NCBI GenBank assembly: GCA_009783465.1
Contig: WRDM01000008.1
Location: 2,943-66,942, forward strand
Length of the DNA: 64,000 nt
Reading direction: 5' to 3'
Source: Phycisphaerae bacterium
Lineage (GTDB): Bacteria > Planctomycetota > Phycisphaerae > SM23-33
Shown here: positions 1-53,248 of the stretch, in pieces
Numbering within the stretch: position 1 is the first letter of the stretch
Layout of the letters: each line of letters opens with the position of its first letter
Position numbers and translations under genes: made by a program
Notes under the pieces: generated by a model
The model's database searches: none
What the model saw: only the letters and a program-made list of their open reading frames with translations
What the model was told of the DNA's origin: nothing

Positions 1-158
1 TAGCCAGTAGCCAATCGCCAGTAGCCAACAGGTATGGGACGACAAGGGCGAAAGGCAATGAAAGCGGAAACAGGTAAACGCGTAGCGACGAATCGGGATC
101 GTGTGATTTGCGACAGACCTCGCCGTACCTGGTGGCTATTGGCTACTGGCTGTTGGCT
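1..158. repeat. HS-A hairpin element (GCCAGTA/GCCAATA heptad arms), left arm cut by the window edge
   Basis: Arms 1-29 and 123-158. Junctions AGGTATGG / CGTACCT. The loop carries blocks GGCGAAAGGCAATGAA and GGATCGTGTGATTTGCGACAG. Confidence 0.8.
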
Positions 159-189
159 TTTTCCCCACAGACTTTATAGAGTACTCACT

Positions 190-837
190 ATGACAACCCA
201 CGAACCCCATTCGCATCGACACAGGATTCGGCGGCATTATGAGCCGCGGATCGAGGCGGGGCGGGCGAATTATGACATTCTCGACTGGGCCAGTCCGCAG
301 TCGCAGCGGGCGCGGTTTGAGGTGTTGGCGCGGCACGTCGACCTGGCCGGACGGAGCCTGCTGGACATCGGCTGCGGACTTGGCGATCTGCTGGGCTTTT
401 TGCGCGACCGCCGTATCGACATGCGGTATACGGGTGTGGATATTCTCGACAAAATGGTCGCCGCCGCCCGCGACCGCCATCCTGACGGCTTGTTTATCCA
501 CGCCGACATTTTTAGCCAGGACGATCAACCCCACCAGCCTCATCAACCGATTTTCGAAGCCAACTCGTTCGACGTAACGTTCTGTAGCGGCGCGTTCAAT
601 CTCAACCTGGACAACAACGCGCAGTTTCTCCCGCACGCGGTGGCCGAGATGGTCCGCCTCGCCCGCCACGCCGCCGTGTTCAATCTCCTCCATCACCGCG
701 CCCGGCAGGGGGATGAAACCTATTTCTATTACGAGCCGGAAAACATCCCGTCGCTCGTGGCGGGCCTGGACGTGACGGTGCAAATTTTCGACGATTATCT
801 GCACAACGATTTCACGGTGATTTGCCGGAAAAAATAA
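190..837 (+). CDS. class I SAM-dependent methyltransferase
   Basis: ORF 34..837. The first ATG after the upstream hairpin repeat is at 190. SAM motif I 'LLDIGCGLGDLLGFL'. Confidence 0.75.
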   Translation: MTTHEPHSHRHRIRRHYEPRIEAGRANYDILDWASPQSQRARFEVLARHVDLAGRSLLDIGCGLGDLLGFLRDRRIDMRYTGVDILDKMVAAARDRHPDGLFIHADIFSQDDQPHQPHQPIFEANSFDVTFCSGAFNLNLDNNAQFLPHAVAEMVRLARHAAVFNLLHHRARQGDETYFYYEPENIPSLVAGLDVTVQIFDDYLHNDFTVICRKK

Positions 838-839
838 CC

Positions 840-2921
840 ATGCTGGGATTCCTCACATTCCTGGTGCCTGCGGTTCTGGGGGCTGCTGCGGCGGTGGCGG
901 CGCCGGTGGTGATTCATTTGTTGTTGCGGTCCAAGCCGCGGCAGGTGGTGTTTCCGGCGATGCGGTTTGTCCGCAAGACACAGTTGGCGAGTGTGTCCTC
1001 GCAGCGGCTGCGGCAGTTGATTCTGCTGGCGATGCGGATGTTGGTGATCGCGTTGGTGGTGGGGTTGGTCGCGCGGGCACAGTTGCCGGCGTTCAGCCAG
1101 GCGCCGGCGGAGGAACTGCCGTGCGACATGATCGTGATTGTCGACAACAGCGGCTCGATGAATTACCTTCAGGGCGGCGTCAGTCGGCTGGGCAAGGGCA
1201 AGCAGTTGGCCCGCGAGCGGATCGGTCGTCTGCCGGCGGGGTCGCGGGCGGCGGTCATGTGGGTGTCCGACCCGGCGGCGGGCGGGACGTTTCTGGACAC
1301 GTCGACGGCCGTCGGCGAGGTCGATCGCATCGAGCCCACATGGGGCGGTCAGGCGTTGGGCGATTGTCTCCGCCGGGCTGTTGAGTTGGCGGCGAAGGCA
1401 GACAGCGGCCGACGCAAGGAGATCGTGCTCGTCACCGACATGACCGGTCCGGCGTGGCGGGACGTGACGGCGGTCGGCGAAATCGACGCGTGGTTTGTCG
1501 TGCTCGATCCCACGCAGGGGCGGACGAATAATTTGTCGTTGAGCGAGCCGAAACTCAAGGCCAGTGCCGTGCCGGCGGGATCGTCGACGGAGTTGGCGGT
1601 CACGCTGGCCAGCGTGGGGATCGACGGCGAATGCATGGTTCGCCTTGACGTATCAGGCGAGGCGGTCGGTCAATGGGCCCGCGCGGTGCAGGACGGCGTG
1701 TCGTCGCGACTGTCGATGGAGGTTCGTCCGGCGCGGGAGGGCGTGGCGCAGGGTCAGGTTTCGCTGTCGCAGCCGGACAATCTGGAGCTGGACGACGTGC
1801 GGTATTTCACGGTGCGGGTTGGTGCGGCGGCGCGGGTGCTGGTGGTTCGCGACGGCGTGAACGTCGGGCGCGGCGATGCGACGAGCCGGCTGATGACGGC
1901 GGCGATCATGCCGGCCGGCTCGGGCGTGCGTGGCGAGGGCATCACCAGCGGGCCGTTGGGGCGGACGGATTTGTCGTCGTTCGACGGTGTGGTGCTGGCG
2001 AACGTGGCCGGGCTGACGCTCGAGCAGTGGGACGCGCTGGACGCGTACGTTCGCGGCGGGGGGCAGTTGTGGGTGGTGCCGGGCGACCTGGTGTCGGCGG
2101 CGGCGTACAACATTCGGCCAGCGCAGCGGCTGTTGCCGGCGACGCTGGGGGAGGTGCAGTCGCCGTCGGGCGGCGTTCGGCTGCGGGCGGCGGAACTGGA
2201 TCATCCGCTGGTGTCGCCGTTTGCTGGCGGGGAGAATCCGCCGCTGTCGGACGTGGTGGCGGCGCGTCGGTGGGCGATCGAGTCGCGTGCGGAGGACGCG
2301 GAGGTGGCGTTGGCGTACGCTGACGGCGTGCCGGCGATTCTGCGTCGGCCTGTCGGGCTTGGCGCGTGCGTGCTGTGGAATCTTTCGCCGGCGGGCGAAT
2401 TTTCCAACCTCGCGCCGCTCCAGCAGTTTCCGATTCTCGTGCAGCAGACGGTTCGGCTGATGGGGGCCGACCAGGACGCGCGGACGTTGTACAGGCTGGG
2501 CGAAACGGTGTACGTGCCGCTGCCGCGCCAGATGGCTTCGCCGGCGGTCGGCGTCCGCGGGCCCGGCCAGGCGGTAGAGACGGCGGAGGCGTTGCGTGGC
2601 GACGCGCGCGAATTGGCCATGACGGCCGACCGGGTGGGGCACTACGTCGTTTCGTTCACGCAGGACGGGCGGCGGCGGGAGTTCGGCTTCAGCGTGAACG
2701 CGCCGGAGGCAGAGAGTGACCTGGCCGTTGTGGCGGCGGAGCAGGTTCAAGACAAATTTCCCGCCGGCCGATTCCGCGTCCTCACGCCCGACCAGGCCAA
2801 CGACGCCGACGACCGAACCGTGAAAAAAAACCTGGATTTAACCGCTCCGCTGCTGTTGGCCTTATTCGCCCTGCTGACCGGCGAGGCGTTTTTCGCCAAC
2901 CGATTCTACAAACGCGCGTAA
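840..2921 (+). CDS. BatA-N-terminal/VWA-domain membrane protein
   Basis: ORF 822..2921, ATG at 840. N-terminal two-TM 'HLLLRSKPRQVVFPAMRF' (aerotolerance BatA-like). MIDAS-like 'VDNSGSM'. Confidence 0.75.
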   Translation: MLGFLTFLVPAVLGAAAAVAAPVVIHLLLRSKPRQVVFPAMRFVRKTQLASVSSQRLRQLILLAMRMLVIALVVGLVARAQLPAFSQAPAEELPCDMIVIVDNSGSMNYLQGGVSRLGKGKQLARERIGRLPAGSRAAVMWVSDPAAGGTFLDTSTAVGEVDRIEPTWGGQALGDCLRRAVELAAKADSGRRKEIVLVTDMTGPAWRDVTAVGEIDAWFVVLDPTQGRTNNLSLSEPKLKASAVPAGSSTELAVTLASVGIDGECMVRLDVSGEAVGQWARAVQDGVSSRLSMEVRPAREGVAQGQVSLSQPDNLELDDVRYFTVRVGAAARVLVVRDGVNVGRGDATSRLMTAAIMPAGSGVRGEGITSGPLGRTDLSSFDGVVLANVAGLTLEQWDALDAYVRGGGQLWVVPGDLVSAAAYNIRPAQRLLPATLGEVQSPSGGVRLRAAELDHPLVSPFAGGENPPLSDVVAARRWAIESRAEDAEVALAYADGVPAILRRPVGLGACVLWNLSPAGEFSNLAPLQQFPILVQQTVRLMGADQDARTLYRLGETVYVPLPRQMASPAVGVRGPGQAVETAEALRGDARELAMTADRVGHYVVSFTQDGRRREFGFSVNAPEAESDLAVVAAEQVQDKFPAGRFRVLTPDQANDADDRTVKKNLDLTAPLLLALFALLTGEAFFANRFYKRA

Positions 2922-3998
2922 TTCTTGTGGGGTCATATCGGGGGAGTAGTGGATGATCGCGCCGCGTTTGGCGGGGGAAGAGAAGAGGTAGTGGGCGATC
3001 AAGCCCAGGCGGTAGACGTCGGCGGTAGAGGTGGGCGAGGGCTGGGCGGCGGTGTCGCAAGCGGCGGCCATGGCGGCGAGTGTGGCGGCGAGTTGTTCGT
3101 CGGTGGGGGTTTGGCTGAGGGGGGCGATTTTCGTCACGGCGGGGCCGACGGCGAGGAAGACGTCCCGCCATTTTTTTGACGCCGCCGGTTGCACGAGAAT
3201 GAACCGCCACTGCTCCATCGGCCTGACGTGGGCGTAGTCTTCGTGGTCCAGCGTGCGAGTGCGGTCGAGTCGTTTTTTCAGGCCTGCCGCCCGCTCGAAT
3301 TCCGTCGCGTCGGCGGCCTGCCGCATGCGTTCCCGCAGCCGCGAGAGGAATGGTTCGCGTTGCCCGCTTGCGAAGGCGGCCGCCTCGGCGACCTGCTGGC
3401 GATATGGCTCCAGCGAGATCGCGCCGTGGCAAGGCCCGGTGCATCGGCCCATTTGCCAGTACGTGCACGCGGGCCCGTGGGGCGACTGCCGCAGGCACGC
3501 GACGTCGCGGCAAAGGTCGAACAGATCCTCAATGGTTTCGATGAATCCCCGGGCGGCCTGTCCGCTGGGAAAAGGCCCGACGGTCAGCCCGGCCTGCCCC
3601 GGCTGGCGGGTCCGCGAAAAATGCGGGAACTCCTCCGACGGGTCCACGTGCACCAGCCAGGCACGCCGCCAGGAGAGCAGCTCCGCGAACGAGGCCGGGA
3701 ACAGCGATCGGGCCAATTCCAGAAACGTCGCGTCGGCTTCCCAGTGGCTCGGCGTGAGCGTGTAGAGAATTTTCCGCGTGATCTGGCGAAGATCGGCGGA
3801 TTTGCGCCGCGTGTCGTCGGCAGGCTCGGCCAGGCGATGGCGAAGCCGGGCGCGAAGATCCGCCGCCGTCAACAGCAGAATGGGCGCGTCGCGTTCATCG
3901 GCCAACAACAGCACACCGCGCTTGGCGGGAATGTCCGCCAACGCCTCCTCACTCAACGGCGGCTCCACGGCGATTGCATGGGAAAACAACGTGTTCAT
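2862..3998 (-). CDS. UvrC N-terminal-like protein (degenerate GIY-YIG region, Cys-rich segment, UVR-like helix)
   Basis: ORF 2862..4103; the ATG at 3998 ('MNTLFSH') lies outside the hairpin repeat. 'CLRQSPHGPACTYWQMGRCTGPC' resembles the UvrC Cys cluster. 'EFERAAGLKKRL' is UVR-like. Confidence 0.5.
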   Translation of the reverse strand: MNTLFSHAIAVEPPLSEEALADIPAKRGVLLLADERDAPILLLTAADLRARLRHRLAEPADDTRRKSADLRQITRKILYTLTPSHWEADATFLELARSLFPASFAELLSWRRAWLVHVDPSEEFPHFSRTRQPGQAGLTVGPFPSGQAARGFIETIEDLFDLCRDVACLRQSPHGPACTYWQMGRCTGPCHGAISLEPYRQQVAEAAAFASGQREPFLSRLRERMRQAADATEFERAAGLKKRLDRTRTLDHEDYAHVRPMEQWRFILVQPAASKKWRDVFLAVGPAVTKIAPLSQTPTDEQLAATLAAMAAACDTAAQPSPTSTADVYRLGLIAHYLFSSPAKRGAIIHYSPDMTPQELRAFVESVGEKRLAGQQGE

Positions 3999-4030
3999 GG
4001 GTTTCGTTGCTCGATGGTGAAAACGTGCCG

Positions 4031-4208
4031 CGCGTTCGAGGGAACCTAGCCAGTAGCCAATAGCCAGTAGCCAATAGGTATGGGTAAATCTGTGGCGGAT
4101 CACACGATCCTGATTTTGACCACGCTCGTATCCATTCCCACGATCACTGCCAATTTCGCCGTTGTCTTTCCTTACCTACTGGCTACTGGCTTGGTTCCCT
4201 CGAACGCG
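4031..4208. repeat. HS-A hairpin element with TTCGAGGGAAC clamp; loop inverted relative to copies 1 and 3
   Basis: Clamp CGCGTTCGAGGGAACC / GGTTCCCTCGAACGCG. The arms are heptad arrays. The loop blocks are present as reverse complement. Confidence 0.85.
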
Positions 4209-4240
4209 CGGTTCATTTTTACCCGCGTGCCGCGAACAGC

Positions 4241-4714: not shown

Positions 4715-4838
4715 AAGTTTTTCCTCATGAAGACAATGATTGAGCGTATCCGAATCCGCTGGCGGTTTCAACCGGATTGCTGCGCTCGTCCAGGGCGAAC
4801 GCATATGCATTTCTCTTTCTCGCACGGGATCCGTGTGT

Positions 4839-4958
4839 CGGCGCGACTGGCCGCAGGCCCTGCCGTTTTACGCTGTAGATCGGTGTGTACGACGAAGCGT
4901 TCTGTCGCGCATCATGTTTTACAACGCAAAATGGCAGGGCCTGCGGCCAGTCGCGCCG
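4839..4958. repeat. H-family hairpin element, copy 1
   Basis: Arms CGGCGCGACTGGCCGCAGGCCCTGCCGTTTT / AAAATGGCAGGGCCTGCGGCCAGTCGCGCCG. The loop shares ACGAAGCGTTCTGTCGC with copy 2. Confidence 0.85.
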
Positions 4959-5241
4959 ACCGTGAAGGTCGCGCGAAAAGTCGGAAAGTGCCCGTGCGGT
5001 TTCCCACCGCCCTCGTCGGTTCCTGTCGTTCACTTTAGAAAAAAGGCGAAAAAAATTCCCGCGCCATTTGCCTGCCCGCCCATTGCATCGTACGTTCCCG
5101 TTTGAAAAGGAAATATCTGGCAGCGTGGCCCCTTGTGTTTGCAGGGTCGTGTGTCGTGTTCGCTGTCGGATGATGCCTGGTCGAACGCAACCCTGCGGTA
5201 ATCCATTGTGGTTACGGGGTAACTCTCTAGGAAGAGGAGGA

Positions 5242-11874: not shown

Positions 11875-11972
11875 GAGGCTGTAGGCTGAAGGCTGTAGGC
11901 GCAGCACAGGCTTATGCGAGTTTAGACCCAACGAGACATAAGCCTCTCCCTACAGCCTACAGCCCACAGCCT
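11875..11972. repeat. HS-C hairpin element (CTGTAGG heptad arms)
   Basis: GAGGCTGTAGGCTGAAGGCTGTAGGC...GGCTTATG-loop-CATAAGCC...CCTACAGCCTACAGCCCACAGCC. Starts 1 nt after the portal stop codon. Confidence 0.85.
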
Positions 11973-12167
11973 GAAACGGCTCACGTCGCGAAGAACCACA
12001 CGAAGACGACACGCTATGGATGCACCCATCTATGAGGCATTCGGGATTCGGCAACGGCGGCGAGCGCCGCGCGAGGGGGATCGGCACGAACCTCCTGCCG
12101 ACCCGAATGCCTGAACGGAACACAGGCCATGGGCCCGGCGCCCATGACACAACGAAAGGAACTCATC

Positions 12168-13934: not shown

Positions 13935-13937
13935 CGG

Positions 13938-14094
13938 CAGCCAATAGCCAGTAGCCAATAGCCAATAGGTACGGAACGATATTGGCGAAAGGCAATGAAT
14001 GTGGGAGTTGGCATAAATCTCAAACAGATCACGATCGTGTGATTTTCGACAGGTTTCACCATACCTATTGGCTACTGGCTGCTGGCTACTGGCT
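13938..14094. repeat. HS-A hairpin element, copy 3
   Basis: Arms 13938-13969 and 14061-14094. Loop blocks are the same as in copy 1. Confidence 0.85.
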
Positions 14095-16286: not shown

Positions 16287-16390
16287 GACTGTAGGCTGTA
16301 GGCTGAAGGCTGTAGGCTGTAGGCGCGGGCTTATGAAACATTAGGCCTAATCCTTCATAAGCCTGCCCCCACAGCCCACAGCCCACAGCC
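16287..16390. repeat. HS-C hairpin element
   Basis: 5 CTGTAGG-type units, core GGCGCGGGCTTATG...CATAAGCCTGCC, then CACAGCC x3. Confidence 0.85.
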
Positions 16391-16409
16391 TTACAACCAC
16401 GAGGAACGT

Positions 16410-19225: not shown

Positions 19226-19453
19226 AAAGCCACTAGCCACCAGCCACCAGGGCTTGCGTGACGCGTAGGTGAAGGAAAACCATTTGCCAGAGGGAAACGT
19301 TTCGTTGACTCGTTAACTGGTTAACTCGTTAATTCGGCGCCAAGTCAACCAGTTAACGAGTTAACCAGTTAACGAAAATGTTCCCTCGAATCTGCGACAT
19401 GATTTCACCGCCGAGCAGTCGAAAAACCTATGTGCTACGTAGCTGGTGGCTTT
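19226..19453. repeat. HS-B hairpin (GCCACTA/GCCACCA arms) containing a nested HS-E (GTTAAC) hairpin at 19290-19387
   Basis: Outer arms 19226-19252 and 19441-19453 (right arm short). The inner element is flanked by GAGGGAAAC / GTTCCCTC. Confidence 0.7.
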
Positions 19454-20593: not shown

Positions 20594-20805
20594 GCCACAA
20601 GCCACCAGCCACAAGCCACCAGGGCTTGTGGGGCGCGACGGTAAATTTTTCCATCGCGGTGGCGAGAGAGGTCCCGATGCTTCGCGGATACGGCGGTCAA
20701 GGCGGATAACTTACGTTTCGAGTCAGCGAAGCATCGGGACCTCTCTCTCTCGGACAAACGGAACGATTTTCCATTCATGCACCGCAAACCCTTGTCGCTT
20801 GTGGC
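20594..20805. repeat. HS-B hairpin with nested inner hairpin (20664-20748)
   Basis: Arms GCCACAAGCCACCAGCCACAAGCCACCAGGG / CCCTTGTCGCTTGTGGC. Inner hairpin GAGAGAGGTCCCGATGCTTCGC...GCGAAGCATCGGGACCTCTCTC. Confidence 0.8.
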
Positions 20806-20844
20806 TTTGTACCTGCGTGACGAACCACCCGAGAGGAGGGCAGC

Positions 20845-21159
20845 ATGATCAGCGTGATCACGGATTTGACGAGCATGGGGGCGGCGGGGGTGATGGGGGC
20901 GATGTGGCTGTGGGAGCGGCGTGCATCGGCCCAGCGGGAGCGGGAGTTGACCGAGTCGCACGGGCGGATCCTGCGGGACGAGCAGCGGTTGGACAAACTC
21001 ACGCACGTCGTGGAGCAGGCGACGGCGGCCATCACCCGGTTTCAGCAGACGCAGCAGGAGATGAGCGAGTTGATCAAGCACGTTCTTAAGGAGATTCATC
21101 ATGGCGGCACAACGGAAACTCGAAATCAGAAACCCGAAACTCGAAACAAACCCCAATGA
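20845..21159 (+). CDS. small N-terminal-TM coiled-coil protein (i-spanin/holin-like)
   Basis: SD GAGAGGAGGG. TM 'MGAAGVMGAMWLW' followed by a coiled coil. The last ~15 codons are encoded by a repeat arm. Confidence 0.45.
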   Translation: MISVITDLTSMGAAGVMGAMWLWERRASAQRERELTESHGRILRDEQRLDKLTHVVEQATAAITRFQQTQQEMSELIKHVLKEIHHGGTTETRNQKPETRNKPQ

Positions 21160-21342
21160 ACGGCGGAAGTTCGAAATCCAAAGCATGAAATCCGAAACAA
21201 ATTTCAAACAACAAATTCGAAACTCGAAACGGCGCCGCCAAACATCATGCCTGCGCTCCAAGGCGTCATGCGTTACCGTTTGGAATTTGCTGTTTGGGTC
21301 ATTGGGGTTTGTTTCGAATTTCGAATTTCGAATTTCGAATTT
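21114..21342. repeat. HS-F hairpin (GAAACNC / CGAATTT heptad arms)
   Basis: Left arm GGAAACTCGAAATCAGAAACCCGAAACTCGAAACAAACCCCAATGA. Right arm TCATTGGGGTTTGTTTCGAATTTCGAATTTCGAATTTCGAATTT. Confidence 0.75.
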
Positions 21343-21370: not shown

Positions 21371-21829
21371 ATGACGTTGCTGGGCGGCTGTGCGGCGCCG
21401 ACGGCCACGCTGGATTTGATTGCCGTCGCCCGCGCGGGATTGGCCGACGCGCGGGATGCGCAGCGGCAGTCGCACGAGACCTTGATACGGCAGTTCTCTC
21501 AGCAGCAGGCGGCGCTCGACGCGGCCTTCGACGCCGACGTCCGGCTGGCGGAGGCCGGGGCGATCCGCGACGCGCAGGGCAACCCCGTCGCGCTGGACGG
21601 GCGATGGGTGATCGCCGCCCGCAAAGGCTATGTGGCCGCCCGCGACGCCGTGGCACAACAGGCCGTTGCCGCGCAGGCCGCCCACGCCACGCGGCTGGAC
21701 AACCTCGCCGCCGCCGACGACGCGCTCCACATGGCCTGCACGCTCATCATCGAACAACAGGGCCTGAACATCCGCATGCGGCAGTACCTCCAGAAAGCCA
21801 CAAGCCACAAGCCACTAGCCACAAGGTAA
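21371..21829 (+). CDS. helical lipoprotein
   Basis: Lipobox 'LLGGC'. Start ambiguous (GTG 21359 or ATG 21371). The C-terminal 'KATSHKPLATR' is encoded by a repeat arm. Confidence 0.45.
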   Translation: MTLLGGCAAPTATLDLIAVARAGLADARDAQRQSHETLIRQFSQQQAALDAAFDADVRLAEAGAIRDAQGNPVALDGRWVIAARKGYVAARDAVAQQAVAAQAAHATRLDNLAAADDALHMACTLIIEQQGLNIRMRQYLQKATSHKPLATR

Positions 21830-21947
21830 GGATAGTCTCTGGCTAAAAGACAATGATCGCGGAAATGGCTGTACCTGTTCGATGAACCAGGATCGGCTGA
21901 TGGGTAACAGGTTTTGCCATACCTGGTGGCTAGTGGCTAGTGGCTTT
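21794..21947. repeat. HS-B hairpin
   Basis: Arms AAAGCCACAAGCCACAAGCCACTAGCCACAAGGTAAGG / CCATACCTGGTGGCTAGTGGCTAGTGGCTTT. Confidence 0.85.
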
Positions 21948-28430: not shown

Positions 28431-28550
28431 GTTAACTCGTTAACTGGTTGATTCGTTAACTCGCTAACGGGTCGACTAGCTAACTGATTGACTAGTTAAC
28501 TAGTTAACTAGTTAACTAGTTAACTAAAGCGTTTCCCTCGAACCACGGGT
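28431..28550. repeat. HS-E element (GTTAACNN octad arrays) with a right-hand GTTTCCCTCGAAC clamp
   Basis: GTTAACTC GTTAACTG ... then GTTAACTA x4. Arm pairing is imperfect. Confidence 0.65.
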
Positions 28551-29465: not shown

Positions 29466-29493
29466 GGTTGTATTTTACCAACAAGTACCCCGC

Positions 29494-29806
29494 AGCCACA
29501 AGCCACAAGCCACCAGCCACAAGGTATTCGAAATTCGGTGCTCCCATCGTAGCAAAATTTTCCGCGATTGGCATGCCGAATAGCGAATACTTTCAGGGCC
29601 ATCGCATCGTAAAAGGCCCATTTTTCGGCTGTAGGCTGTGGGCTGTAGGCTGTAGGTTGATTTTCCTTTGCGAAACATCGGTCGCAAAGGCATGTCTCCT
29701 ACAGCCTACAGCCCACAGCCTACAGCCTTTTCGCGAAAAAACGCGGAAATTTAGATGCGATGGCCCTGGCGAATACCTTGTGGCTAGTGGCTGGTGGCTT
29801 GTGGCT
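29494..29806. repeat. four-level nested hairpin (HS-B outer, HS-C inner)
   Basis: Level 1: 29494-29527/29770-29806. Level 2: CAGGGCCATCGCATC/GATGCGATGGCCCTG. Level 3: CTGTAGG arrays 29626-29727. Level 4: CCTTTGCGA..TCGCAAAGG. Confidence 0.85.
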
Positions 29807-30380
29807 GGGTCTTCAGGAAAAACCGCACCGCCATGTCGCCGTACGCCTTGACCCGTGTGCAGGTCAACGGCCCGAGGGTGTCCGGGACGTCGGCGTGTTC
29901 GTCGGTTCGCAGGACGACGCAGCCGTCGTTTTCGGACAGTTTCGGCGCCAGCGGCATGAAAATCGCGTCAGCCGCCCGCTGCCAGTCCCACTGCCGCGCG
30001 TCGGCGTAGGGCGGATCGACGAAGGCGACGTCCACCGGGGCCTGCACCTGCGTCAGCCACTCCGTCAGCCGGGCCTCCACGTCGCCGCGCCAGACCGTCG
30101 CCCGGTCCGTCGCGCGCAGGTCGCGCAGATTCCGCGCCAGCCGCTCCAGAACGCGCGGATCCTTCTCGGCAAAGAAACACCGCGCCGCGCCACGCGATAA
30201 ACACTCAATCCCCATCGTGCCCGTGCCGCAGTACAGGTCAATCACCGTCTGGCCATGCAATTCCTCGCCCAGCATGGCAAAGAGCGACTTCTTCACCAGT
30301 CCCGTCACGGGTCGGGTGATACTCTTGCCAGGCGGCGGCAAAATCTCCCGCCCACGAAATTCACCAGCCAGGATGCGCAT
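29784..30380 (-). CDS. rsmD: 16S rRNA (guanine966-N2)-methyltransferase
   Basis: 'RPVTGLVKKSLFAML', 'DLYCGTGTMGIECLSRGA' and 'FVDPPY' motifs. The last 7 codons lie in a repeat arm. Confidence 0.8.
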   Translation of the reverse strand: MRILAGEFRGREILPPPGKSITRPVTGLVKKSLFAMLGEELHGQTVIDLYCGTGTMGIECLSRGAARCFFAEKDPRVLERLARNLRDLRATDRATVWRGDVEARLTEWLTQVQAPVDVAFVDPPYADARQWDWQRAADAIFMPLAPKLSENDGCVVLRTDEHADVPDTLGPLTCTRVKAYGDMAVRFFLKTQPQATSH

Positions 30381-30430: not shown

Positions 30431-30748
30431 AAAGCCAGTAGCCAATAGCCAGTAGCCAATAGGTATGGAACGTCTCTGGTTATGAGGTAGTGTAAGCGGG
30501 AATGGTTACGCCTGTCGGGGTGGTTGAGTTTCCTGCACGACGAAAGCATCTGGTTTTGTGAGGAAAACAACCGATTATCCTCCCCGGTCTCGTACGGCAG
30601 TGCCGGTTCTTCCGCGCGAGACCGGGGAGATCAATCGGTTGTTTTCCACATCGAATCCGCACAGGCCAGCAACACGACAGTCACCACAAAATCATCCATC
30701 ATACCTGCTGGCTACTGGCTGGTGGCTATTGGCTTTGTTCCTTCGAAC
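30431..30748. repeat. HS-A hairpin with nested I-family hairpin (30562-30647)
   Basis: Arms 30431-30461 and 30701-30736. Inner hairpin GGAAAACAACCGATTATCCTCCCCGGTCTCG...CGAGACCGGGGAGATCAATCGGTTGTTTTCC. Confidence 0.8.
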
Positions 30749-31073: not shown

Positions 31074-31295
31074 ACAAGCCACAAGCCACTAGCCACCCGG
31101 CTCCGCCAAAGCTACGTCGGGCAAGCAAGCCACAAGGTATGGCGAAATCTTTTTCGCGCCAGACGATCCCCGTTTCGGCTGGTGGTATCGTTGTTTCCGC
31201 TTTTATTGTCGTTTCGCCCTGTGCGTCCCTTACCTTGTGGCTTGCTTGCCCGACGTAGCCTTGGCGGAGCCGGGTGGCTAGTGGCTTGTGGCTTG
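31074..31295. repeat. HS-B-related hairpin with ~65-nt near-perfect arms
   Basis: Left arm ACAAGCCACAAGCCACTAGCCACCCGGCTCCGCCAAAGCTACGTCGGGCAAGCAAGCCACAAGGTA. The right arm is its reverse complement. Confidence 0.85.
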
Positions 31296-38598: not shown

Positions 38599-38631
38599 TC
38601 GGATTTTCGCGGCGTGTGGGTGAAGAGGAAT

Positions 38632-38764
38632 CGTTGGTTCGAGGGAACGGTTTTAGTTGACTGGTTAACTGGTTAACTGGTTAACTGGTGGCTTCGCGAA
38701 TGAATTAACTAGTTAACCAGTCAACCAGTTAACTAGTTACCATCATGATTCCCTCGAACCAACG
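38632..38764. repeat. HS-E hairpin with full TTCGAGGGAAC clamp
   Basis: CGTTGGTTCGAGGGAAC, then GACTGGTTAACTGGTTAACTGGTTAACTGG ... TTAACTAGTTAACCAGTCAACCAGTTAACTAGTTA, then TTCCCTCGAACCAACG. Confidence 0.85.
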
Positions 38765-38799
38765 GTCCGCTTTCACCGTCACGCAAAGGAGAACGCACA

Positions 38800-42585: not shown

Positions 42586-42711
42586 AGCCACAAGCCACTA
42601 GCCACAAGCCACCAGGTAAGGAATGACGACGGCGAAAACGAAATTTTTGTTTCGATTCGCGGCAGGTTTTCCATACCTTGTGGCTTGTGGCTAGTGGCTT
42701 GTGGCTAGTGG
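42586..42711. repeat. HS-B hairpin
   Basis: AGCCACAAGCCACTAGCCACAAGCCACCAGGTAAGG ... CCATACCTTGTGGCTTGTGGCTAGTGGCTTGTGGCTAGTGG. Confidence 0.85.
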
Positions 42712-43605: not shown

Positions 43606-43651
43606 TTCCGCGGGGCAATCGCATGGGTTTGGATCGTGTTCCCGTTGTGGA

Positions 43652-43710
43652 CGCAGGCGGATGAATCATTAGGCCAAATCGTTCATAAGCCTGCGCCTAC
43701 AGCCTACAGC
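43652..43710. repeat. HS-C partial element (core plus right arm only)
   Basis: GCAGGCGGATGAATCATTAGGCCAAATCGTTCATAAGCCTGCGCCTACAGCCTACAGCC. No left heptad array. Confidence 0.6.
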
Positions 43711-44678
43711 CGCAACGTCAATTCGCCGCCGTTGGCGTCGAGGGTGACGCTGAAGGTGTCGATTCGCAGCACGCGCATGCCGTCGACATTGTCGCCCACG
43801 CGCACGTTTCTGTTATTGACGATGGCGGTCGGTTGGCCGTCGACGATCATGATGGCGCTGAGCAGGGGTCGCCCGTCGAAGGGCTTGGCCCTGGCGACGG
43901 TTTTCGCGCTGCCGCTGCCACCGCTGCTCTTGGCGGGGACGGGTTTTTTCGTCAACTGATTGAGGCGGATGATGCCGTAGGCGAACGGGTCCTCGAAAAA
44001 CGCGTCCAGCGGATCGGGGGTTTCCACGGCGACGGGTGTCCGTGCCGCCAGCAACACCGCCGCGCGATTCATCCAGGGCGTTTCGGGGGAAATCCGGCTC
44101 AGATCGGCCAGCATTTCCTGATGCTTCGCGCAGGCCTCCTCACTTTCCTTGCCTTTTCCATAGCCGAAGATGGCTGCCAGTTGGCTTGCCAACCCCTTGA
44201 GTCCGTTGGTGGCGGGGGGGGGCTCGCTTTGGGGGACCACCTTTTTGTGTGCCGGCGGTATCGCGGGCTTGTTTTTGGGCAGCAGATTGGTGTTGATTTT
44301 CACCGAGGCCTGCGCCTTCTTCATCGTGGTCAACTGCTTGAGCTCCTGCGTGACCCACCACGCCACGCCCGCCAACACGCCGATCATGACCATGTACATC
44401 AAGACTTCCTTGCCCGTCAGCGAGGGCTTGGCCATCTCCTCATAGTTGGGGATATTATTCTGGTACTTCGGCGTTCTCGTGGGCGAAGGCGCTGGCGCCG
44501 CGAAGGACGGTTCCGTCGTCACGGGAGGCTGATCGGGGGCATCCAGGTCGGGCAGCGGCGGAAATTCATCGAGCGGTTCGAACGCGAGATCGTCCGAATC
44601 ATCCAACGGACCGATATCCGCATCGGTCAACTCGGATGGAGGTTCCTGCCTGCCGTGTTGTGCGTCAAAGCCCATCAT
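43704..44678 (-). CDS. hypothetical single-pass membrane protein
   Basis: Acidic/Pro-rich N-terminus, one TM ('VLMYMVMIGVLAGVAWWV'), C-terminal small beta-domain. Confidence 0.5.
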   Translation of the reverse strand: MMGFDAQHGRQEPPSELTDADIGPLDDSDDLAFEPLDEFPPLPDLDAPDQPPVTTEPSFAAPAPSPTRTPKYQNNIPNYEEMAKPSLTGKEVLMYMVMIGVLAGVAWWVTQELKQLTTMKKAQASVKINTNLLPKNKPAIPPAHKKVVPQSEPPPATNGLKGLASQLAAIFGYGKGKESEEACAKHQEMLADLSRISPETPWMNRAAVLLAARTPVAVETPDPLDAFFEDPFAYGIIRLNQLTKKPVPAKSSGGSGSAKTVARAKPFDGRPLLSAIMIVDGQPTAIVNNRNVRVGDNVDGMRVLRIDTFSVTLDANGGELTLRL

Positions 44679-44800
44679 CGCGAATCTCCCGGCGCAGCCG
44701 CCGCGCGGGCGGCATAGTACGCCGTAGTTTCTATTGTCGGTCGATCCCGCGGCTTGGTTTATTAGGAAATATAAGTAGAAGGAATATTGTGAAGAGGCGG

Positions 44801-44895
44801 TTAGACTGTTAGGCTGTTAGGCGCGGGCTTATGCGAATTCAGGCCGAAATGCTCCATAAGCCTCTCCCTAACAGTCTAACAGCCTAACAGTCTAA
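44801..44895. repeat. HS-D hairpin (CTGTTAGG octad arms)
   Basis: TTAGACTGTTAGGCTGTTAGGCGCGGGCTTATG...CATAAGCCTCTCCCTAACAGTCTAACAGCCTAACAGTCTAA. Confidence 0.85.
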
Positions 44896-44896
44896 A

Positions 44897-45496
44897 ATGA
44901 TGAAACGTACGATGGACATTCTCCTGAGCCTGTCGGCGACGATGGTGTTGGCCGGCGTGATGCTGTTGATTGCGGCGGCGGTTCGGCTGGAGTCGCCGGG
45001 GGCGGCCATTTTCCGCCAGCGGCGGGCCGGGTGGCGCGGTCGGGCGTTCGTTATGCTCAAATTCCGCTCGATGCGGAGCGACGTGGATCCGTACGGCGGG
45101 TCGCCGCATTCGGGCGCGGACGCCCGCCTGACGCGGGTGGGACGGTTCCTTCGCGAAACCAGCCTCGACGAACTGCCCCAACTGCTCAACGTGCTCCGCG
45201 GCGACATGAGTCTCGTCGGCCCACGCCCGCTGTACGAACGCCAGGCGGCCGAGTGGGACAGCAACCAACGTCGCCGCCTCGACGTTCGCCCCGGCATCAC
45301 CGGCTATGCCCAGGCCTATGGCCGCGGCGAGCTGCCCATCGAAGACAAAATCGAAATGGATCTGTATTACGTGGATCATCAGTCGTTCTGGCTGGACGCG
45401 CGGATCATGGTTCGCACGGTGCTGAATATGTTCTTCCGGCGAGGCGACGTGTACGAAAAGCAGTACAGCCGCGACAAAAAACACGAGACGGACTGA
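44897..45496 (+). CDS. undecaprenyl-phosphate sugar phosphotransferase (bacterial sugar transferase family)
   Basis: 'FRQRRAG..GRAFVMLKFRSM', 'DELPQLLNVLRGDMSLVGPRP' and 'RPGITG'. Confidence 0.85.
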   Translation: MMKRTMDILLSLSATMVLAGVMLLIAAAVRLESPGAAIFRQRRAGWRGRAFVMLKFRSMRSDVDPYGGSPHSGADARLTRVGRFLRETSLDELPQLLNVLRGDMSLVGPRPLYERQAAEWDSNQRRRLDVRPGITGYAQAYGRGELPIEDKIEMDLYYVDHQSFWLDARIMVRTVLNMFFRRGDVYEKQYSRDKKHETD

Positions 45497-46666: not shown

Positions 46667-46750
46667 AAACGAGCCACAAGCGACAAGAGCAGGAGAAGCT
46701 TGTCTTTCAAAGCGTTCGCATGGAGCGAGAACATGAAATAAGACAAGACA

Positions 46751-47206
46751 GTAGCGTTGCAGGTGTGTCATTTCGACGTTGAAAACAAATCGAACGGCCT
46801 TCCCGGTCTCACGTGGAAGGGCCGGCGCACAGCCGCGAAGCGGCGTCGTGTATAGCCTAGGGCGAGCCGTACTCGGCGAGCCCTGGGGCAGGCATTGGGG
46901 CAGTTCGTTTATCGTGCCTGACGCCACTGGCCGAGGTCACACCGTCGCGCGAAGGCGGCCTCGAACGGCCCGCACGTTCCCCTGTGATGCCATTCGAAGC
47001 CGTACAGGCCCGCGTGCGCGGCCTCGGCCAGTGGCGTCAGGCACGATGTGGGAACAAAAATAGCTTGTCCCCAGGGCTCGCCGAGTACGGCTCGCCCTGG
47101 GCTATACACGACGCCGCTTCGCGGCTGTGCGCCGGCCCTTCCACGTCAGGCCGGGGAGGCCGCTCGATTTGTTTTCAACGTCGAAATGACACACCAGCAA
47201 CGCTAT
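46751..47206. repeat. ~456-bp multi-level palindrome (I-family termini)
   Basis: Arms of about 140 nt (46751-46890 and 47065-47206). Inner palindrome 46913-47045 (CGTGCCTGACGCCACTGGCCGAGG / CCTCGGCCAGTGGCGTCAGGCACG). Confidence 0.85.
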
Positions 47207-47276
47207 AGTCTTACAAAACGGACGCAGCTTGCGCTTGTCGCTGGTCAGTAACTGCCTAACCAAAGGATTTATAACA

Positions 47277-47705: not shown

Positions 47706-47892
47706 AAAGCCACAAGCCACTAGCCACCAGGTATTGCAGCGTTTGCTGTCATCACAGGGCACACTGCCGGTGTGCGAATGAAAACGTGATCACGAGTCCG
47801 CGAAGCATCGAGACCACTCTCTCGAACGAGAGGAGCGGTTTTACCGTCGTGCCGCGAAAACCCTGGTGGCTAGTGGCTTGTGGCTAGTGGCT
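47706..47892. repeat. HS-B hairpin
   Basis: AAAGCCACAAGCCACTAGCCACCAGGTA ... GGTTTTACCGTCGTGCCGCGAAAACCCTGGTGGCTAGTGGCTTGTGGCTAGTGGCT. Confidence 0.85.
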
Positions 47893-48452: not shown

Positions 48453-48464
48453 GGCGGGACGCGA

Positions 48465-48583
48465 AAAGACTGTTAGCCTGTTAGGCTATTAGCCTGTTAG
48501 GCGCAGGCGTACGGAATGTTGGGCCAAATCTTTCATAAGCCTGCGCCTAACAGTCTAATAGCCTAACAGGCTAACAGTCTTTT
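48465..48583. repeat. HS-D hairpin between convergent ppiB and marC-family genes
   Basis: AAAGACTGTTAGCCTGTTAGGCTATTAGCCTGTTAGGCGCAGG ... CATAAGCCTGCGCCTAACAGTCTAATAGCCTAACAGGCTAACAGTCTTT. Confidence 0.85.
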
Positions 48584-48584
48584 C

Positions 48585-49166
48585 TCATGCCTCCATCATA
48601 AACGCCTTGACGCCTTCGAGGAACATTTGGACGGCCAGGACGATCAGGAGCATGCCCATGAGGCGTTCGAGGGCTTCGAGGCCTCGCGGGCCCAGGAGGC
48701 GTTGCAGGACGTCCGAGAGCATGAGGATGGCGGCGACGGCCAGCCATGCCAGTCCCAGTGCCGCGGCCACTTGGGGCAGCGGGGCGGTCCGGGAGAGGAT
48801 CAGCAGGGTGGTCATGGCCGAGGGCCCGGCGATCAGCGGGACGGCCAGCGGCACGATGAACGGTTCTCGCGGTGGCGTGCCCGGCTGAACGCTGGGGATC
48901 GGAAACACCATGCGGATCGAGATGACGAACAGGATCACTCCGCCGGAAATGTACAGGGCAGGCGGGGAGATTTTCAGCGTGGCCAGCAGGTACGAGCCGG
49001 TCAGCAGGAACGCCGCCAGCACCGCCAGCGCGATGAGCAACTCCCGCGCCAACACCCGTCGTCGCCGCGGGCGGGGCATCTCGCGCAGCGCGGCGGCGAA
49101 CAGCGGCAGATTCCCCAGCGGGTCCATCACCACAAACAACAAAATGGCAGCCGACGCGAGCGACAT
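48585..49166 (-). CDS. MarC-family (UPF0056) membrane protein
   Basis: 'LFVVMDPLGNLPLF' N-terminal motif. Six hydrophobic segments. Confidence 0.85.
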   Translation of the reverse strand: MSLASAAILLFVVMDPLGNLPLFAAALREMPRPRRRRVLARELLIALAVLAAFLLTGSYLLATLKISPPALYISGGVILFVISIRMVFPIPSVQPGTPPREPFIVPLAVPLIAGPSAMTTLLILSRTAPLPQVAAALGLAWLAVAAILMLSDVLQRLLGPRGLEALERLMGMLLIVLAVQMFLEGVKAFMMEA

Positions 49167-49201: not shown

Positions 49202-49451
49202 GGTTCGAGGGAACAGCTTAGCCACAAGCCACCAGCCACCAGGGTTTTCGTGTGTCCGATGGTGAAAGTGAACATCACGTACGAGAGAGGGGACTCAATG
49301 CTTCGCAGACTCGGGAGGTAATTCACAGGCCTTGCGTTTCGTGTCTGCGAAGCATTGGGACCATTCTCGCCAGCGTGAGGTGTGGTTTTACCGTCGCGCT
49401 GCGAAAGCCCTGGTGGCTAGTGGCTGTTGGCTAGTGGCTTTCGTTCCCTCG
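49202..49451. repeat. HS-B hairpin with TTCGAGGGAAC clamp and nested inner hairpin
   Basis: GGTTCGAGGGAAC, arms 49219-49244 and 49408-49440, then CGTTCCCTCG. Inner hairpin ...CAATGCTTCGCAGAC...GTCTGCGAAGCATTG... Confidence 0.85.
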
Positions 49452-51129: not shown

Positions 51130-51292
51130 GTTTCCATGATCGTCATATTCCGGCGCCACTGGCCACAGGCCCTGCCATTTTGCGTTGCAGATCGTTGTGA
51201 CAGACGAAGCGTTCTGTCGCTCAACAACATTTTACAACGCAAAATGGCAGGGCCTGTGGCCAGTGGCGCCGGAATATGACGATCATGGAAAC
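51130..51292. repeat. H-family hairpin element, copy 2 (longer arms)
   Basis: GTTTCCATGATCGTCATATTCCGGCGCCACTGGCCACAGGCCCTGCCATTTTGCGTTG ... reverse complement. Confidence 0.85.
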
Positions 51293-51335
51293 AACGGGAA
51301 CATGTGATGCGATCGCTCGGCCTACAGCCTGTAGT

Positions 51336-51881
51336 CTATTTTTTCTTTTTCTTGTCGTCGGCCATGGCTTCGAGGGCGGAGAAGATGTCGTCGTCATCGC
51401 CGTCATCGCTGCCGGCTTCGCCGAGTTGGGCCAGCGCGTCGGCGGCGTCATCGTCGTCTTCGTCGAGGACGATGGCTTCTTCCTCGTCGTCGACGTCGAG
51501 TTCGACGACTTCGTCGTCATCGTCGGCCATCGGGGCCGCGGCGGATTTTTTCTTCTTCGTTGCCGCCGGGGCCGTCACGCCTGCCGGCTTGCCGTCGAGT
51601 TGCACGACGAACGAGACAGGCCCGAGCGTCAGCAGGTCGCCCGCCCGCAGCGGCGACTCCGTCACGCGTTTGTTGTTGACGAACGTGCCGTTGGACGACC
51701 CCAGATCGGCGACGACCAGTTTGCCGCCCTCGATCCGCAGTTCGCAGTGCCGCCGGCTGACATCCGTCAACGGCACACGGAGGTCGCACTCATCGCCGCG
51801 CCCCACGATGGTGACGTCGCCCGCCACGGGAAAATCTTTGCGCTGACCATTGGCCTTGAACATTACGAGTTTTACGTCCAT
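51336..51881 (-). CDS. FHA-domain protein with acidic/basic tail
   Basis: 'IVGRGDECDLRV..VSRRHCEL...DLGSSNGTFVNN' is the FHA core. Confidence 0.8.
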   Translation of the reverse strand: MDVKLVMFKANGQRKDFPVAGDVTIVGRGDECDLRVPLTDVSRRHCELRIEGGKLVVADLGSSNGTFVNNKRVTESPLRAGDLLTLGPVSFVVQLDGKPAGVTAPAATKKKKSAAAPMADDDDEVVELDVDDEEEAIVLDEDDDDAADALAQLGEAGSDDGDDDDIFSALEAMADDKKKKK

Positions 51882-51958
51882 GATTCACCTATGTCGCCGC
51901 ACGGGAAAGGGTTTTACCGAACACCGAAACCTGAACACGAACTTCACGCATTGTAAAA

Positions 51959-53248
51959 ATGACCAACGCGCCCTGCAAACAAAATAGCGACGGACTTTCG
52001 TATCTTCCGCCAGGAGCATTATATCTCCATGTGCCGTTCTGTCTGGCCAAGTGTCGATATTGCGATTTTTATTCCCGTCCCATCCGCGCCGCCGACGCGG
52101 ACCGTTACACTGCCGCCGTTACGCGGCAGTTGCGACGGCTATGTAGCACGGGCGTCTCGCCCGTGAGTCGCATGGGCGTCCCGCCCATGCAAAACCAACC
52201 TGTCGGCGAAACGTGCGACCATGGCCAGATCGCTATGGGCGAGACGCCCGTGCTGCGGACGCCTCTGGCGACGGTGTTCCTCGGCGGCGGCACGCCGACG
52301 GCCCTTGGCGGGGAGCGGCTTGGGGACATTTTTCGCGCCGTCGCGCCGCTGTGCGACGCCCGCACGGAAATCTCCGTCGAAGCCAATCCCGGCGCGTTCG
52401 ACGGGCCGCTGGCGCGTCGGCTGATCGCGGCGGGCGTCAATCGCGTGAATATCGGCGTGCAGTCGTTTCAAGGCGACGAATTGGCCGTGCTGGGCCGTCT
52501 GCACGACGCCGCGGCGGCGAGGCACGCGGTGGCCCTCGCGAGGGACGCGGGGTTCGCGAATGTCGGCATCGACCTCATGTACGGCCTGCCGGGCCAAACG
52601 TTGGCGTCCTGGCGGGATTCGCTGCGGCAGGCGTTCGATCTGGGCGTGGAGCACCTCAGCGGCTACGCGTTGAGCATCGAGCCAGGCACGCCGCTGCACG
52701 CCGATTGGCAGGCCGGCGCGGTCGAGGAGATGGACGAAACCCTGCAACGTGAGATGTACTACGCGATGATCGAGCAGGCCGGCGGGGCGGGGTTGGCACA
52801 CTATGAAATGTCCAATTTCGCCAGGCCCGGTTTTGCGTGCCGACACAATCTGACGTACTGGCACAATTGGCCGTACCTTGGCCTTGGCCCGGCGGCGGCG
52901 AGTTACATGGCCGGCGTGCGTCGCACGAATCGCCCGGACGCCGACGCGTGGGCGACGGCGGTGCTGGCGGATCGGCCCCCGCCCGCGGACGAAGAGCGGC
53001 TGCCGCGGCATCTCCGCATGGCCGAGACGTTGATGCTAGGCCTTCGCCTGACGGCGGGCGTGGATCGGTCCGCCTTCGCGTCGCGTTTTGGCCTGGACGC
53101 ATTGGCCGCCTTCCCGCACTCCCTGCCACGCTACGCCGCGCAAGGCGCACTGCTCATCGAGGCCACGCACATCCGCCTGGCGAGTTGGGCGCTGTTCGGC
53201 GCGGACACGATTTTGGCGGATATCGTCGAGGAGGGGCGGCGAGAGTAG
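51959..53248 (+). CDS. hemW: radical SAM heme chaperone/coproporphyrinogen-oxidase-like protein with in-frame repeat insertion
   Basis: 'LYLHVPFCLAKCRYCDFYS', 'VFLGGGTPT' and 'NIGVQSF'. About 38 extra aa between the cluster and GGGTP are encoded by 52143..52256. Confidence 0.8.
   Translation: MTNAPCKQNSDGLSYLPPGALYLHVPFCLAKCRYCDFYSRPIRAADADRYTAAVTRQLRRLCSTGVSPVSRMGVPPMQNQPVGETCDHGQIAMGETPVLRTPLATVFLGGGTPTALGGERLGDIFRAVAPLCDARTEISVEANPGAFDGPLARRLIAAGVNRVNIGVQSFQGDELAVLGRLHDAAAARHAVALARDAGFANVGIDLMYGLPGQTLASWRDSLRQAFDLGVEHLSGYALSIEPGTPLHADWQAGAVEEMDETLQREMYYAMIEQAGGAGLAHYEMSNFARPGFACRHNLTYWHNWPYLGLGPAAASYMAGVRRTNRPDADAWATAVLADRPPPADEERLPRHLRMAETLMLGLRLTAGVDRSAFASRFGLDALAAFPHSLPRYAAQGALLIEATHIRLASWALFGADTILADIVEEGRRE
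52143..52256. repeat. GC-pal element (GTAGCACGGGCG subtype) in frame in the hemW-like gene
   Basis: GTAGCACGGGCGTCTCGCCCGTGAGTCGCATGGGCGTCCCGCCCATGC ... TATGGGCGAGACGCCCGTGCTGC. Confidence 0.8.

Follow-up and report, generated by a model that had tools for sequence, protein, structure and literature searches.

Fold-back interspersed repeats with inverted heptamer arrays in the intergenic regions of a Phycisphaerae bacterium

The STRR heptamers of cyanobacteria and a general excess of heptanucleotide long simple sequence repeats (SSRs) in bacteria are known (Mazel 1990; Mrazek 2007, both as cited in later work), and polymerase slippage is the only cause of that excess proposed by Mrazek (2007), in so far as that work is cited. 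In Xanthomonas campestris and X. axonopodis there are 70-75 convergent pairs of GGGAATC heptamer arrays per genome, of which about 90% are intergenic and lie nearer to the 3' end of the upstream open reading frame (ORF) than to the next gene. The arrays mostly contain about four units, the unit number varies between related species, and stem-loops are possible (Rehm et al. 2015, PMC4692102). The pairs were treated in that study as G-quadruplex formers and were not analysed as elements. Here we describe inverted arrays of 7- and 8-nt units in a 64,000-nucleotide stretch of DNA (the window; contig WRDM01000008.1 of assembly GCA_009783465.1, positions 2,943 to 66,942) with a G+C content of about 63%, from an uncultured member of the Planctomycetota (Phycisphaerae). 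In reverse complement the window corresponds to the ENA metagenome contig ERZ27257304:k141_2390043, and its cyclophilin is identical to a protein listed by NCBI under "MAG: Phycisphaerae bacterium". The elements are fold-back repeats resembling repetitive extragenic palindromic (REP) sequences and transposable elements of the miniature inverted-repeat kind (MITEs), combined with heptamer microsatellites; they are not a new category. They probably represent several families of non-coding, palindromic interspersed repeats of one Phycisphaerae lineage, selfish or neutral in the sense in which REPs and MITEs are.

The elements share with the Xanthomonas pairs the tandem heptamers, the convergent arrays of the same unit close together and the position nearer to the upstream ORF. 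An earlier note on this DNA, which knew of no described family combining inverted heptad arrays with swappable units, a shared clamp and nesting, was thus too strong on this point. In Xanthomonas, however, a single G-rich unit is used, and no core, families, nesting or unit swapping have been described, whereas in the window conserved cores carry several unit flavours and whole elements are dispersed. STRRs are likewise intergenic tandem heptamers with several unit types per genome and slippage-type length variation, but they are described as direct arrays; inverted pairing around a conserved core does not belong to that description. REP, BIME and REPIN sequences, which are associated with the REP-associated tyrosine transposases (RAYTs), resemble the present elements in being high-copy, intergenic, imperfect palindromes without a target-site duplication (TSD), with several families per genome and in any gene context. 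GTAG-tagged REPs are known in the Planctomycetes and in the Planctomycetes-Verrucomicrobia-Chlamydiae (PVC) group (PMC3733652), and REPs, like family A described below, carry GTAG next to a GC-rich stem. Nevertheless, REPs measure 20-40 nt, have a single unpaired GTAG or CGTC tag and come with a cognate RAYT, whose gene REPs usually flank, whereas the elements here measure 90-320 nt with stems of 100-300 nt, their GTAG unit is tandem and paired with CTAC, and no RAYT was found in the sequence examined. MITEs such as ERIC/IRU, Correia/NEMIS, RUP and BOX are also small, non-coding, multi-copy, intergenic and nestable, and fold over their whole length. One family of the window (family P) is a textbook member, with a terminal inverted repeat (TIR) and a 10-bp TSD, but the array-bearing families differ in that they have no TSD and their "TIRs" are tandem 7- or 8-mers of variable number. 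The Foldback transposons of eukaryotes (FB, Galileo-type) are kilobase-sized, with long inverted arms of short tandem sub-repeats, P- or MULE-type transposases and a TSD. The sub-repeat arms, the variable middle and the expansion and contraction of the arms are alike, as a matter of architectural analogy and not homology. Searches of the literature gave no match for the literal repeat strings and nothing relevant on STRR, Nezha or small dispersed repeats.

Between 27 and 34 arrays of period 7 or 8 were detected in the window by Tandem Repeats Finder and an independent scan, and every one is intergenic. As in bacterial heptanucleotide SSRs, period 7 is over-represented: in the window 23 of the 34 short-period arrays have it, and relatives show it in 63 of 151. 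The pattern AGCCANNAGCCANNAGCCANNAGGTA matches 14 times and the pattern GGCTGTAGGCTGTAGG, with up to two mismatches, 18 times, against 0.00 expected for either in dinucleotide shuffles. Inverted partner arrays were seen for about 20 elements in gaps between 1 and 49.4 kb and for none beyond, in agreement with the earlier description of some 20 elements in several unit flavours on one building plan. The ribosomal-protein operon contains zero arrays, as had been said. Array-bearing copies total about 3.4 kb and other palindromes about 1 kb more, which is near the hand count of about 5 kb; the share of intergenic gaps with hairpin repeats is about two-thirds, not almost every gap as had been claimed.

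The elements (numbered E1 to E22; Table 1) also stand out by folding. RNA folding z-scores of -4 or below were obtained for 21 of 33 scored intergenic regions (IGRs; those between 4 and 52.2 kb that measure 40 nt or more), the extreme being -31.7, whereas 25 coding controls of 200 nt each ranged from +1.6 to -2.6 and IGRs past 51.9 kb lay near 0. The gaps at 1-189 (E1) and 21160-21983 (E9, E10) also bear elements and fall outside the scored set. The doubt that the arms might fold no better than shuffled sequence is thereby removed. The same families, orthologous but sequence-diverged copies included, are present in independent assemblies (ENA ERZ27257304, JGI 3300010167 and IMG/VR), and they are therefore not an assembly artefact. 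Minimum free energy folds of whole elements pair 75-90% of their bases, with 121 pairs over the 316 nt of E12 and 87 pairs over the 221 nt of E15. Thus what had been described as loops of 20-250 nt is mostly base-paired, and each element forms a single long, imperfect palindrome that carries its tandem units outermost.

When the gaps were compared all against all and sorted by their non-repetitive cores, at least four dispersed families (A to D) were recognized, each with copies at several sites of the window. In each arm, three to five complementary units of 7 or 8 nt stand around a family-specific core. Family A has the core GGCGCAGGCTTATG-N-TTAGGCCTAAT-N-CATAAGCCTGCGCC with units CTGTAGG or CTGTTAGG (E3, E5, E13, E18, E19 and E21). 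Family B has GCCACNA units (E8, E20, E22), and family C an AGGTAWGG junction with GCCANNA units (E1, E2, E4, E10, E15 and E17, with E12 and E14 related). Family D consists of GTTAACNN 8-mers, often within an outer module "O" (E7, E11, E16). Similarity within families is considerable: 75% over 163 nt for E1 and E4, 71% over 215 nt for E8 and E22, 84% over 100 nt for E20 and E22, 80% over 99 nt for E3 and E5, 74% over 121 nt for E11 and E16, and 68% over 181 nt for E6/E7 and E16. Several flavours do exist; AGTA, AATA, ACCA and AGCA units are mixed within single arms, so that the first two flavours form one GCCANNA continuum. The swapping of units is real, as E1 (GCCAGTA units) and E10 (GCCACAA units) share a core (69% identity over 161 nt) and the family A core carries either 7-mers or 8-mers. 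The junction common to several elements was also correctly seen, but AGGTAWGG is no special clamp; it is the first non-repeated part of the family C stem.

When metagenomes were scanned for the family A core by a strict pattern, 61 loci were obtained, of which 49 (419 kb) come from JGI 3300010167, where several species at about 76-90% DNA identity to the window organism are represented. About 45 pattern-matching copies lie among these 49 loci, and a covariance model (R1) finds about 60 distinct family A copies in about 480 kb of the lineage, with zero in loci of other phyla, in phage relatives or in L040, a 16-kb locus of an 81% relative. Copy lengths are quantised at 92, 100 or 108 nt. Among 55 typed copies, both arms consist of 8-mers in 36 and of 7-mers in 14; five more were flagged as mixed, mostly through parser or truncation effects, although L133 (538-642) is a clear 7/8 hybrid and L128 (14310-14413) looks like one by eye. 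Identical orders of unit variants (e.g. CTGTTAGG CTGTTAGA CTTTTAGG CTGTTAGG) recur at unrelated loci, which indicates that the arrays travel with the element and are not rebuilt at each site. Copies at different sites descend from master copies already carrying arrays.

It might be supposed instead that nothing moves: hairpins would grow locally from small palindromes, by slippage at the stem base and templated correction within the strand, and the similarity between sites would be convergent. The location of the arrays at the outer ends of the stems, the occurrence of concerted unit replacement, and the fact that the 81% relative and other phyla build the plan from unrelated units would all fit. 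However, non-repetitive cores of 50-150 nt are homologous across many unlinked sites and the order of unit variants is common to different loci. Core homology largely refutes local growth as a sole explanation, which we regard as very unlikely; it survives only as a mode of array growth.

At one site with orthologues in L101, L121 and L133 the core is kept, but the arms have 4/3.5, 3/3 and 3/4 units, respectively; L101 and L121 have 7-mers on both arms and the hybrid L133 an 8-mer right arm. The right arm of E11 is (TAGTTAAC)4 in the window and (GAGTTAAC)3 in its L123 orthologue, a change of unit throughout the arm. Many arrays have a perfect 14-nt periodicity, with period-14 rows matching at up to 100%, and in L040 the same plan is realized with GGATAGACA, AGTTAATC and CAATGCT. 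The arrays, though inherited with the element, behave like microsatellites, with gain and loss of units, 14-nt periodicity and concerted unit replacement. The elements themselves stay at orthologous sites across species-level divergence; E20 is missing from the orthologous gap in L044, and other elements occupy the same site in relatives. Indels in the syntenic pairs L090/L126 and L105/L129 were considered as candidate element insertions and turned out to be differences in gene content or in C-termini.

Pairing is maintained in family A. Over 23 copies 90% of cells are paired, and two Watson-Crick pairs alternate at five positions of the stem. Double changes, one on each side of a pair, occur in 25 cells against 16.2 +/- 3.4 in shuffles (matched by 2 of 500), and arms mismatch at 6.7% within a copy and at 9.7% between copies, signals to which shared subfamily ancestry contributes. 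Array growth and homogenisation would proceed by replication slippage, while complementarity of the arms would be kept by selection on the hairpin or by templating within it.

Mobility is clearest for family P, the MITE found inside E12. The segment 29594-29768 is absent from the syntenic locus L123, its TIR is 15 nt long (CAGGGCCATCGCATC), and TSDs of 10 bp are perfect in L106, L120 and L141, match at 9 of 10 positions in L122, and are imperfect (about 10 bp) in the window copy. The empty site, the TIR and the TSDs identify family P as a classical MITE, and its insertion into E12 explains at least one case of the nesting that the earlier note had rightly reported. A family A element lies within family P, which often inserts into other elements. 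Two copies (L106 9376-9583 and L122 7633-7794, with TSDs GGCTACTGGC and TACTGGCTCA) lie inside GCCAGTA arrays, so that heptad arrays serve as landing sites. Its CAGGG ends and 10-bp TSD recall the ISAs1 family, which we take to have CAGGG ends and 8-10-bp repeats according to the ISfinder table. As to a parent insertion sequence, the sole pair of TIRs spaced at about 1.2 kb, in L142, turned out to surround ATP synthase genes, and no TIR pair 1-2 kb apart with a transposase ORF was found in the examined loci of the lineage. Synteny breaks or inverts beside or at family A or P copies in L088 compared with L120 and in L092 compared with L141; the two alignment blocks in L088 have a family A copy between them, and the family P copy of L141 is about 140 nt from the end of a block. 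These alignments suggest that the repeats mediate rearrangements.

The array-bearing families are another matter. Family A copies end precisely in phase (AAnAGR...YCTnTT) with a varying number of units, and a flanking direct repeat, which a MITE should have, is absent at every length from 2 to 10 nt and at three offsets in 36 copies. For no array-bearing family was there a clean empty-versus-filled site; absence (E20 compared with L044) or replacement was seen, without clean boundaries. A MITE-like nature, one of the origins first considered, therefore remains the best fit for the elements, but without the target duplication in those that bear arrays. They would disperse without a staggered-cut DDE transposase, perhaps by a route that is single-stranded or specific to hairpins, as passengers within MITEs (family P, for instance), or through recombination of one array with another.

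One such route would be that of REPs and REPINs, in which single-stranded hairpins are moved by a RAYT, an HUH enzyme of the Y1 type, with the heptad CT-GTAG-G as a repeated recognition or cleavage motif. A repeated motif would account for the unit-quantised ends and the missing target duplication. The family A 7-mers contain GTAG immediately 5' of a GC-rich imperfect palindrome, the ends are phase-precise and without TSD, an asymmetric half-core (alpha/beta') is conserved, and GTAG-tagged REPs have been reported from the phylum, as noted above. Nevertheless, the GTAG of these elements is paired and repeated and not a single unpaired tag, the 8-mer subfamily shows GTTAG, and GTAG is mostly missing from families B, C and D. 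The orientation of asymmetric family A copies relative to local GC skew (9 of 13, or 10 of 14 with L129 by hand) is not significant. The first description saw no transposase in the window, and we found none there either. The RAYT motif was absent, as Y[IVLM]xxNP, from six-frame translations of all loci examined (about 5-10% of a genome), and the narrower Y[IV]xxNP occurs in no examined locus. An all-against-all blastp of ORFs from the 419 kb of relatives revealed no multi-copy (transposase) genes, only orthologues of related species that co-occur. We consider movement by a RAYT unlikely.

Elements sit in any kind of intergenic gap. The contexts of family A are 13 tandem, 9 convergent and 9 divergent gaps, close to a baseline of 75, 34 and 32, and divergent gaps, which hold promoters, are therefore entered at baseline frequency. 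Such a distribution is not what would be expected if the elements were host-selected RNA hairpins whose long stems, once transcribed, served as (bidirectional) terminators, stopped 3' exonucleases or separated closely packed genes as processing sites of RNase III. In tandem gaps elements begin 1-14 nt past the upstream stop codon and farther from the next start codon, an arrangement shared with Xanthomonas that speaks for such a role, but closeness to the stop would equally follow from purifying selection keeping promoter and ribosome-binding space free. The transcribed strand has no folding advantage over its antisense and G·U pairs show no sense bias; in E9, an element whose arms are imperfect complements (GAAACTC compared with GAAATTC), G·U pairs give the minus strand a folding advantage of 21 kcal/mol. 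A consensus terminator scan gave 24 matches against 16.7 +/- 3.9, which is not a significant enrichment. A-runs on the left (18 of 44 copies) and T-runs on the right (11 of 44; at least 4 of 7 positions) are enriched at family A flanks, although in a minority of copies. Selected RNA hairpins seem improbable, and the terminator and messenger-stabilising roles proposed earlier get no specific support; a selected role of either kind is a minority possibility.

With no signal in context, strand or terminators, the elements are read as primarily selfish or neutral DNA. Several observations nevertheless weigh against this reading. The A-run and T-run flanks would also fit a selected bidirectional terminator, each of the five convergent gaps of the window between 1 and 52 kb holds a palindrome, and the long stay at orthologous sites could mean function instead of neutrality; the same three points would favour RNA hairpins. 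Dispersal is all that points to transposition of the array-bearing families, given that no empty-versus-filled site was found for them, and about 480 kb of the lineage yields no mobilising enzyme, with neither a RAYT-like motif nor a multi-copy ORF. Any transcript running across the hairpins is bound to be affected, but such effects, as a barrier at 3' ends or a target of RNase III, would be a by-product and not the reason for their existence.

A further role would be that of sites on DNA or RNA where a multimeric protein, such as a nucleoid protein, a regulator or one of the cold-shock type, recognises units of 7-8 nt. Five of seven unit positions are conserved and two are variable, and CspB-type proteins bind one heptamer each (according to work cited in PMC4679880). 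At least six unrelated units coexist in one genome, however, units change between close relatives, and no candidate gene was found; we consider this role most unlikely.

The same plan, heptad arms around a paired junction, was seen in loci from Terriglobales, Blastocatellia, Verrucomicrobiae, Phormidiaceae and a 71%-GC uncultured bacterium, retrieved with a search pattern that imposed the unit type and not the inverted partner. Heptamer arrays from many phyla are among the matches listed in a scan of genome collections. It is possible, although we put this forward tentatively, that inverted arrays of 7-8-nt units at hairpin ends form a general class across phyla, produced either by a sequence-independent slippage ratchet of about 7 nt or by a structure-specific mobilisation that reads the unit. 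In the ratchet, slippage by about 7 nt would occur where replication meets the base of a hairpin, the new unit would be copied to the other arm, and small palindromes would grow outward. That the plan is built on unrelated units in the 81% relative as well as in Acidobacteriota, Verrucomicrobiota, Cyanobacteria and Xanthomonas points this way, as do the switching of arms between 7-mers and 8-mers and the concerted change of units in whole arms. If true, the long-noted excess of bacterial heptamer repeats would be tied to the biology of hairpins.

If the description holds, here is a Planctomycetota lineage with most of its intergenic space in fold-back repeats whose stems are evolving microsatellites. 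ORF callers run through such elements (e.g. 21101-21829), and the repeats are obstacles to assembly and binning. Synteny breakpoints between relatives beside or at family A and P copies bear on genome rearrangement, and long double-stranded RNA would form in polycistronic transcripts, with consequences for operon expression. Orthologous sites with 7-mer, 8-mer and hybrid arms offer a system for asking why long SSRs favour 7-nt units and how the arms of a palindrome co-evolve.

Table 1. Fold-back elements and gene regions of the window (window positions; gene regions in kb)
Feature	Positions	Description	Basis
E1	1..160	Family C; GCCAGTA/GCCAATA/GCCAACA, 4 units per arm; junction AGGTATGG...CGTACCT	Pattern, identity to E4
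E2	4003..4236	Composite; outer palindrome module O (GGTGAAA..CGTTCGAGGGAACC; 4003-4046, 4192-4236) around family C element 4047-4191	Inverted pair, z -11.6
E3	11876..11972	Family A; 7-mers CTGTAGG/CTGAAGG; begins 2 nt past portal-gene stop codon	Covariance model R1, 44 bits
E4	13939..14094	Family C; GCCAATA/GCCAGTA units; begins 5 nt past stop of major capsid protein gene	Inverted pair, pattern, homology
E5	16287..16391	Family A; 7-mers; left arm CTGTAGG x5, right arm CCCACAG x3	Inverted pair, R1 67 bits
E6/E7	19228..19417	GCCACYA array 19228-19250, then module O arms around GTTAAC-type 8-mer hairpin 19300-19376 (family D)	Arrays, homology to E16
E8	20594..20806	Family B; GCCACAA/GCCACCA arms; core ..CGACGGTAAA..GAGAGGTCCCGATGCTTCGCGG..	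Homology to E22
E9	21116..21342	Left arm GAAACNC units, right arm TTTCGAA x4; within dubious ORF 21101-21829	Inverted pair
E10	21795..21945	Family C core with GCCACAA/GCCACTA units	Homology to E1, pattern
E11	28431..28526	Family D; 8-mers GTTAACTN; right-arm units all TAGTTAAC (GAGTTAAC in L123 orthologue)	Arrays, homology
E12	29493..29808	Family C-type; GCCACAA x4 per arm; junction AGGTATTCG..CGAATACCT; interrupted by family P	Inverted pair 95% complementary; L123 orthologue uninterrupted
Family P MITE in E12	29594..29768	TIR CAGGGCCATCGCATC; about 10-bp duplication CGAATACTTT / CGAATACCTT; contains E13 (family A 7-mer, 29621-29740)	Absent from syntenic L123
E14	30431..30736	GCCAGTA/GCCAATA arms, AGGTATGG junction; inner palindrome 30559-30650; divergent IGR	Inverted pairs
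E15	31075..31295	Two-tier; outer GCCACAA array and 33-nt stem segment around family C core 31128-31242; arms 68 nt, 97% complementary	Inverted pair, homology
E16	38612..38784	Module O arms around family D 8-mer hairpin (GTTAACTG / CAGTTAAC)	Inverted pair, homology, z -11.9
E17	42586..42711	Short family C; GCCACAA/GCCACTA, 4-5 units per arm	Inverted pair, pattern
E18	43644..43711	Decayed family A; intact units in right arm only	R1 31 bits
E19	44790..44898	Family A; 8-mers CTGTTAGG; divergent IGR	Inverted pair, R1 66 bits
E20	47707..47892	Family B; GCCACNA units; missing from same IGR of relatives L044, L045	Homology
E21	48453..48594	Family A; 8-mers; fills convergent PPIase/MarC gap; orthologous copy in L044	Inverted pair, R1 108 bits
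E22	49220..49439	Family B; GCCACCA units; divergent IGR	Homology to E20
Housekeeping genes	0-10 kb		Contig gene calls
Phage-like structural cluster	10.2 to ~22 kb	SPP1-type portal, scaffold, SU10-type capsid	Contig gene calls
Further housekeeping genes	up to 57 kb		Contig gene calls
S10 ribosomal-protein operon	after 57 kb		Contig gene calls

The GHMP-kinase gene upstream of E1 takes its TAG stop codon from the first unit of that element, and the inner family C element of E2 is oriented opposite to E1 and E4. Searches of Rfam 15, at gathering and E-value thresholds, returned only a tRNA at gathering score and no family for the elements; below threshold, miRNA-precursor models fell on the long hairpins and Acido-Lenti-1 on a giant palindrome at 46745-47212. 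The arms of this palindrome are 144 nt long and 94% complementary, each with an Acido-Lenti-1 match (34 bits in one and 29 in the other, where the gathering score is 37), and its gap accounts for the z of -31.7. It too is one of a dispersed family; L139, L087, L089, L100 and L126 contain copies at 73-79% identity. At the corresponding position in L040, upstream of the HIT gene, there is a gene for an IS110-family transposase (2616-3839; DEDD_Tnp_IS110 and Transposase_20) with tandem 9-mers and 7-mers on its flanks. Further palindromes that are GC-rich and contain no tandem units, at 4837-4960, 51130-51292, 25936-26095, 45499-45558 and 34438-34536, form dispersed families as well, with 86% identity between 4839-4958 and 51151-51271 and 87% between 26042-26103 and 45499-45558.

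In the phage-like cluster (10231-22238), the genes for the portal, the scaffold and the major capsid protein are followed by unannotated ORFs, and fold-back elements lie in nearly all gaps. Two phage relatives from IMG/VR (L048 and L049; capsid identity 58-69%) contain zero arrays, so that the elements are not a phage feature, and the cluster may be a prophage, whether old, domesticated or in decay, or resemble a gene transfer agent. The 242-aa ORF that public annotation places at 21101-21829 spans E9 and is probably not a gene. An 808-aa glycoside-hydrolase-like gene (23483-25909), with a radical-SAM gene and a BatA gene on its sides, has no counterpart in L123, where these two neighbours are about 140 nt apart. 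Just ahead of the element-free ribosomal region, the gene pair DUF6364/PIN_3 (53336-54006) is probably a toxin-antitoxin module.

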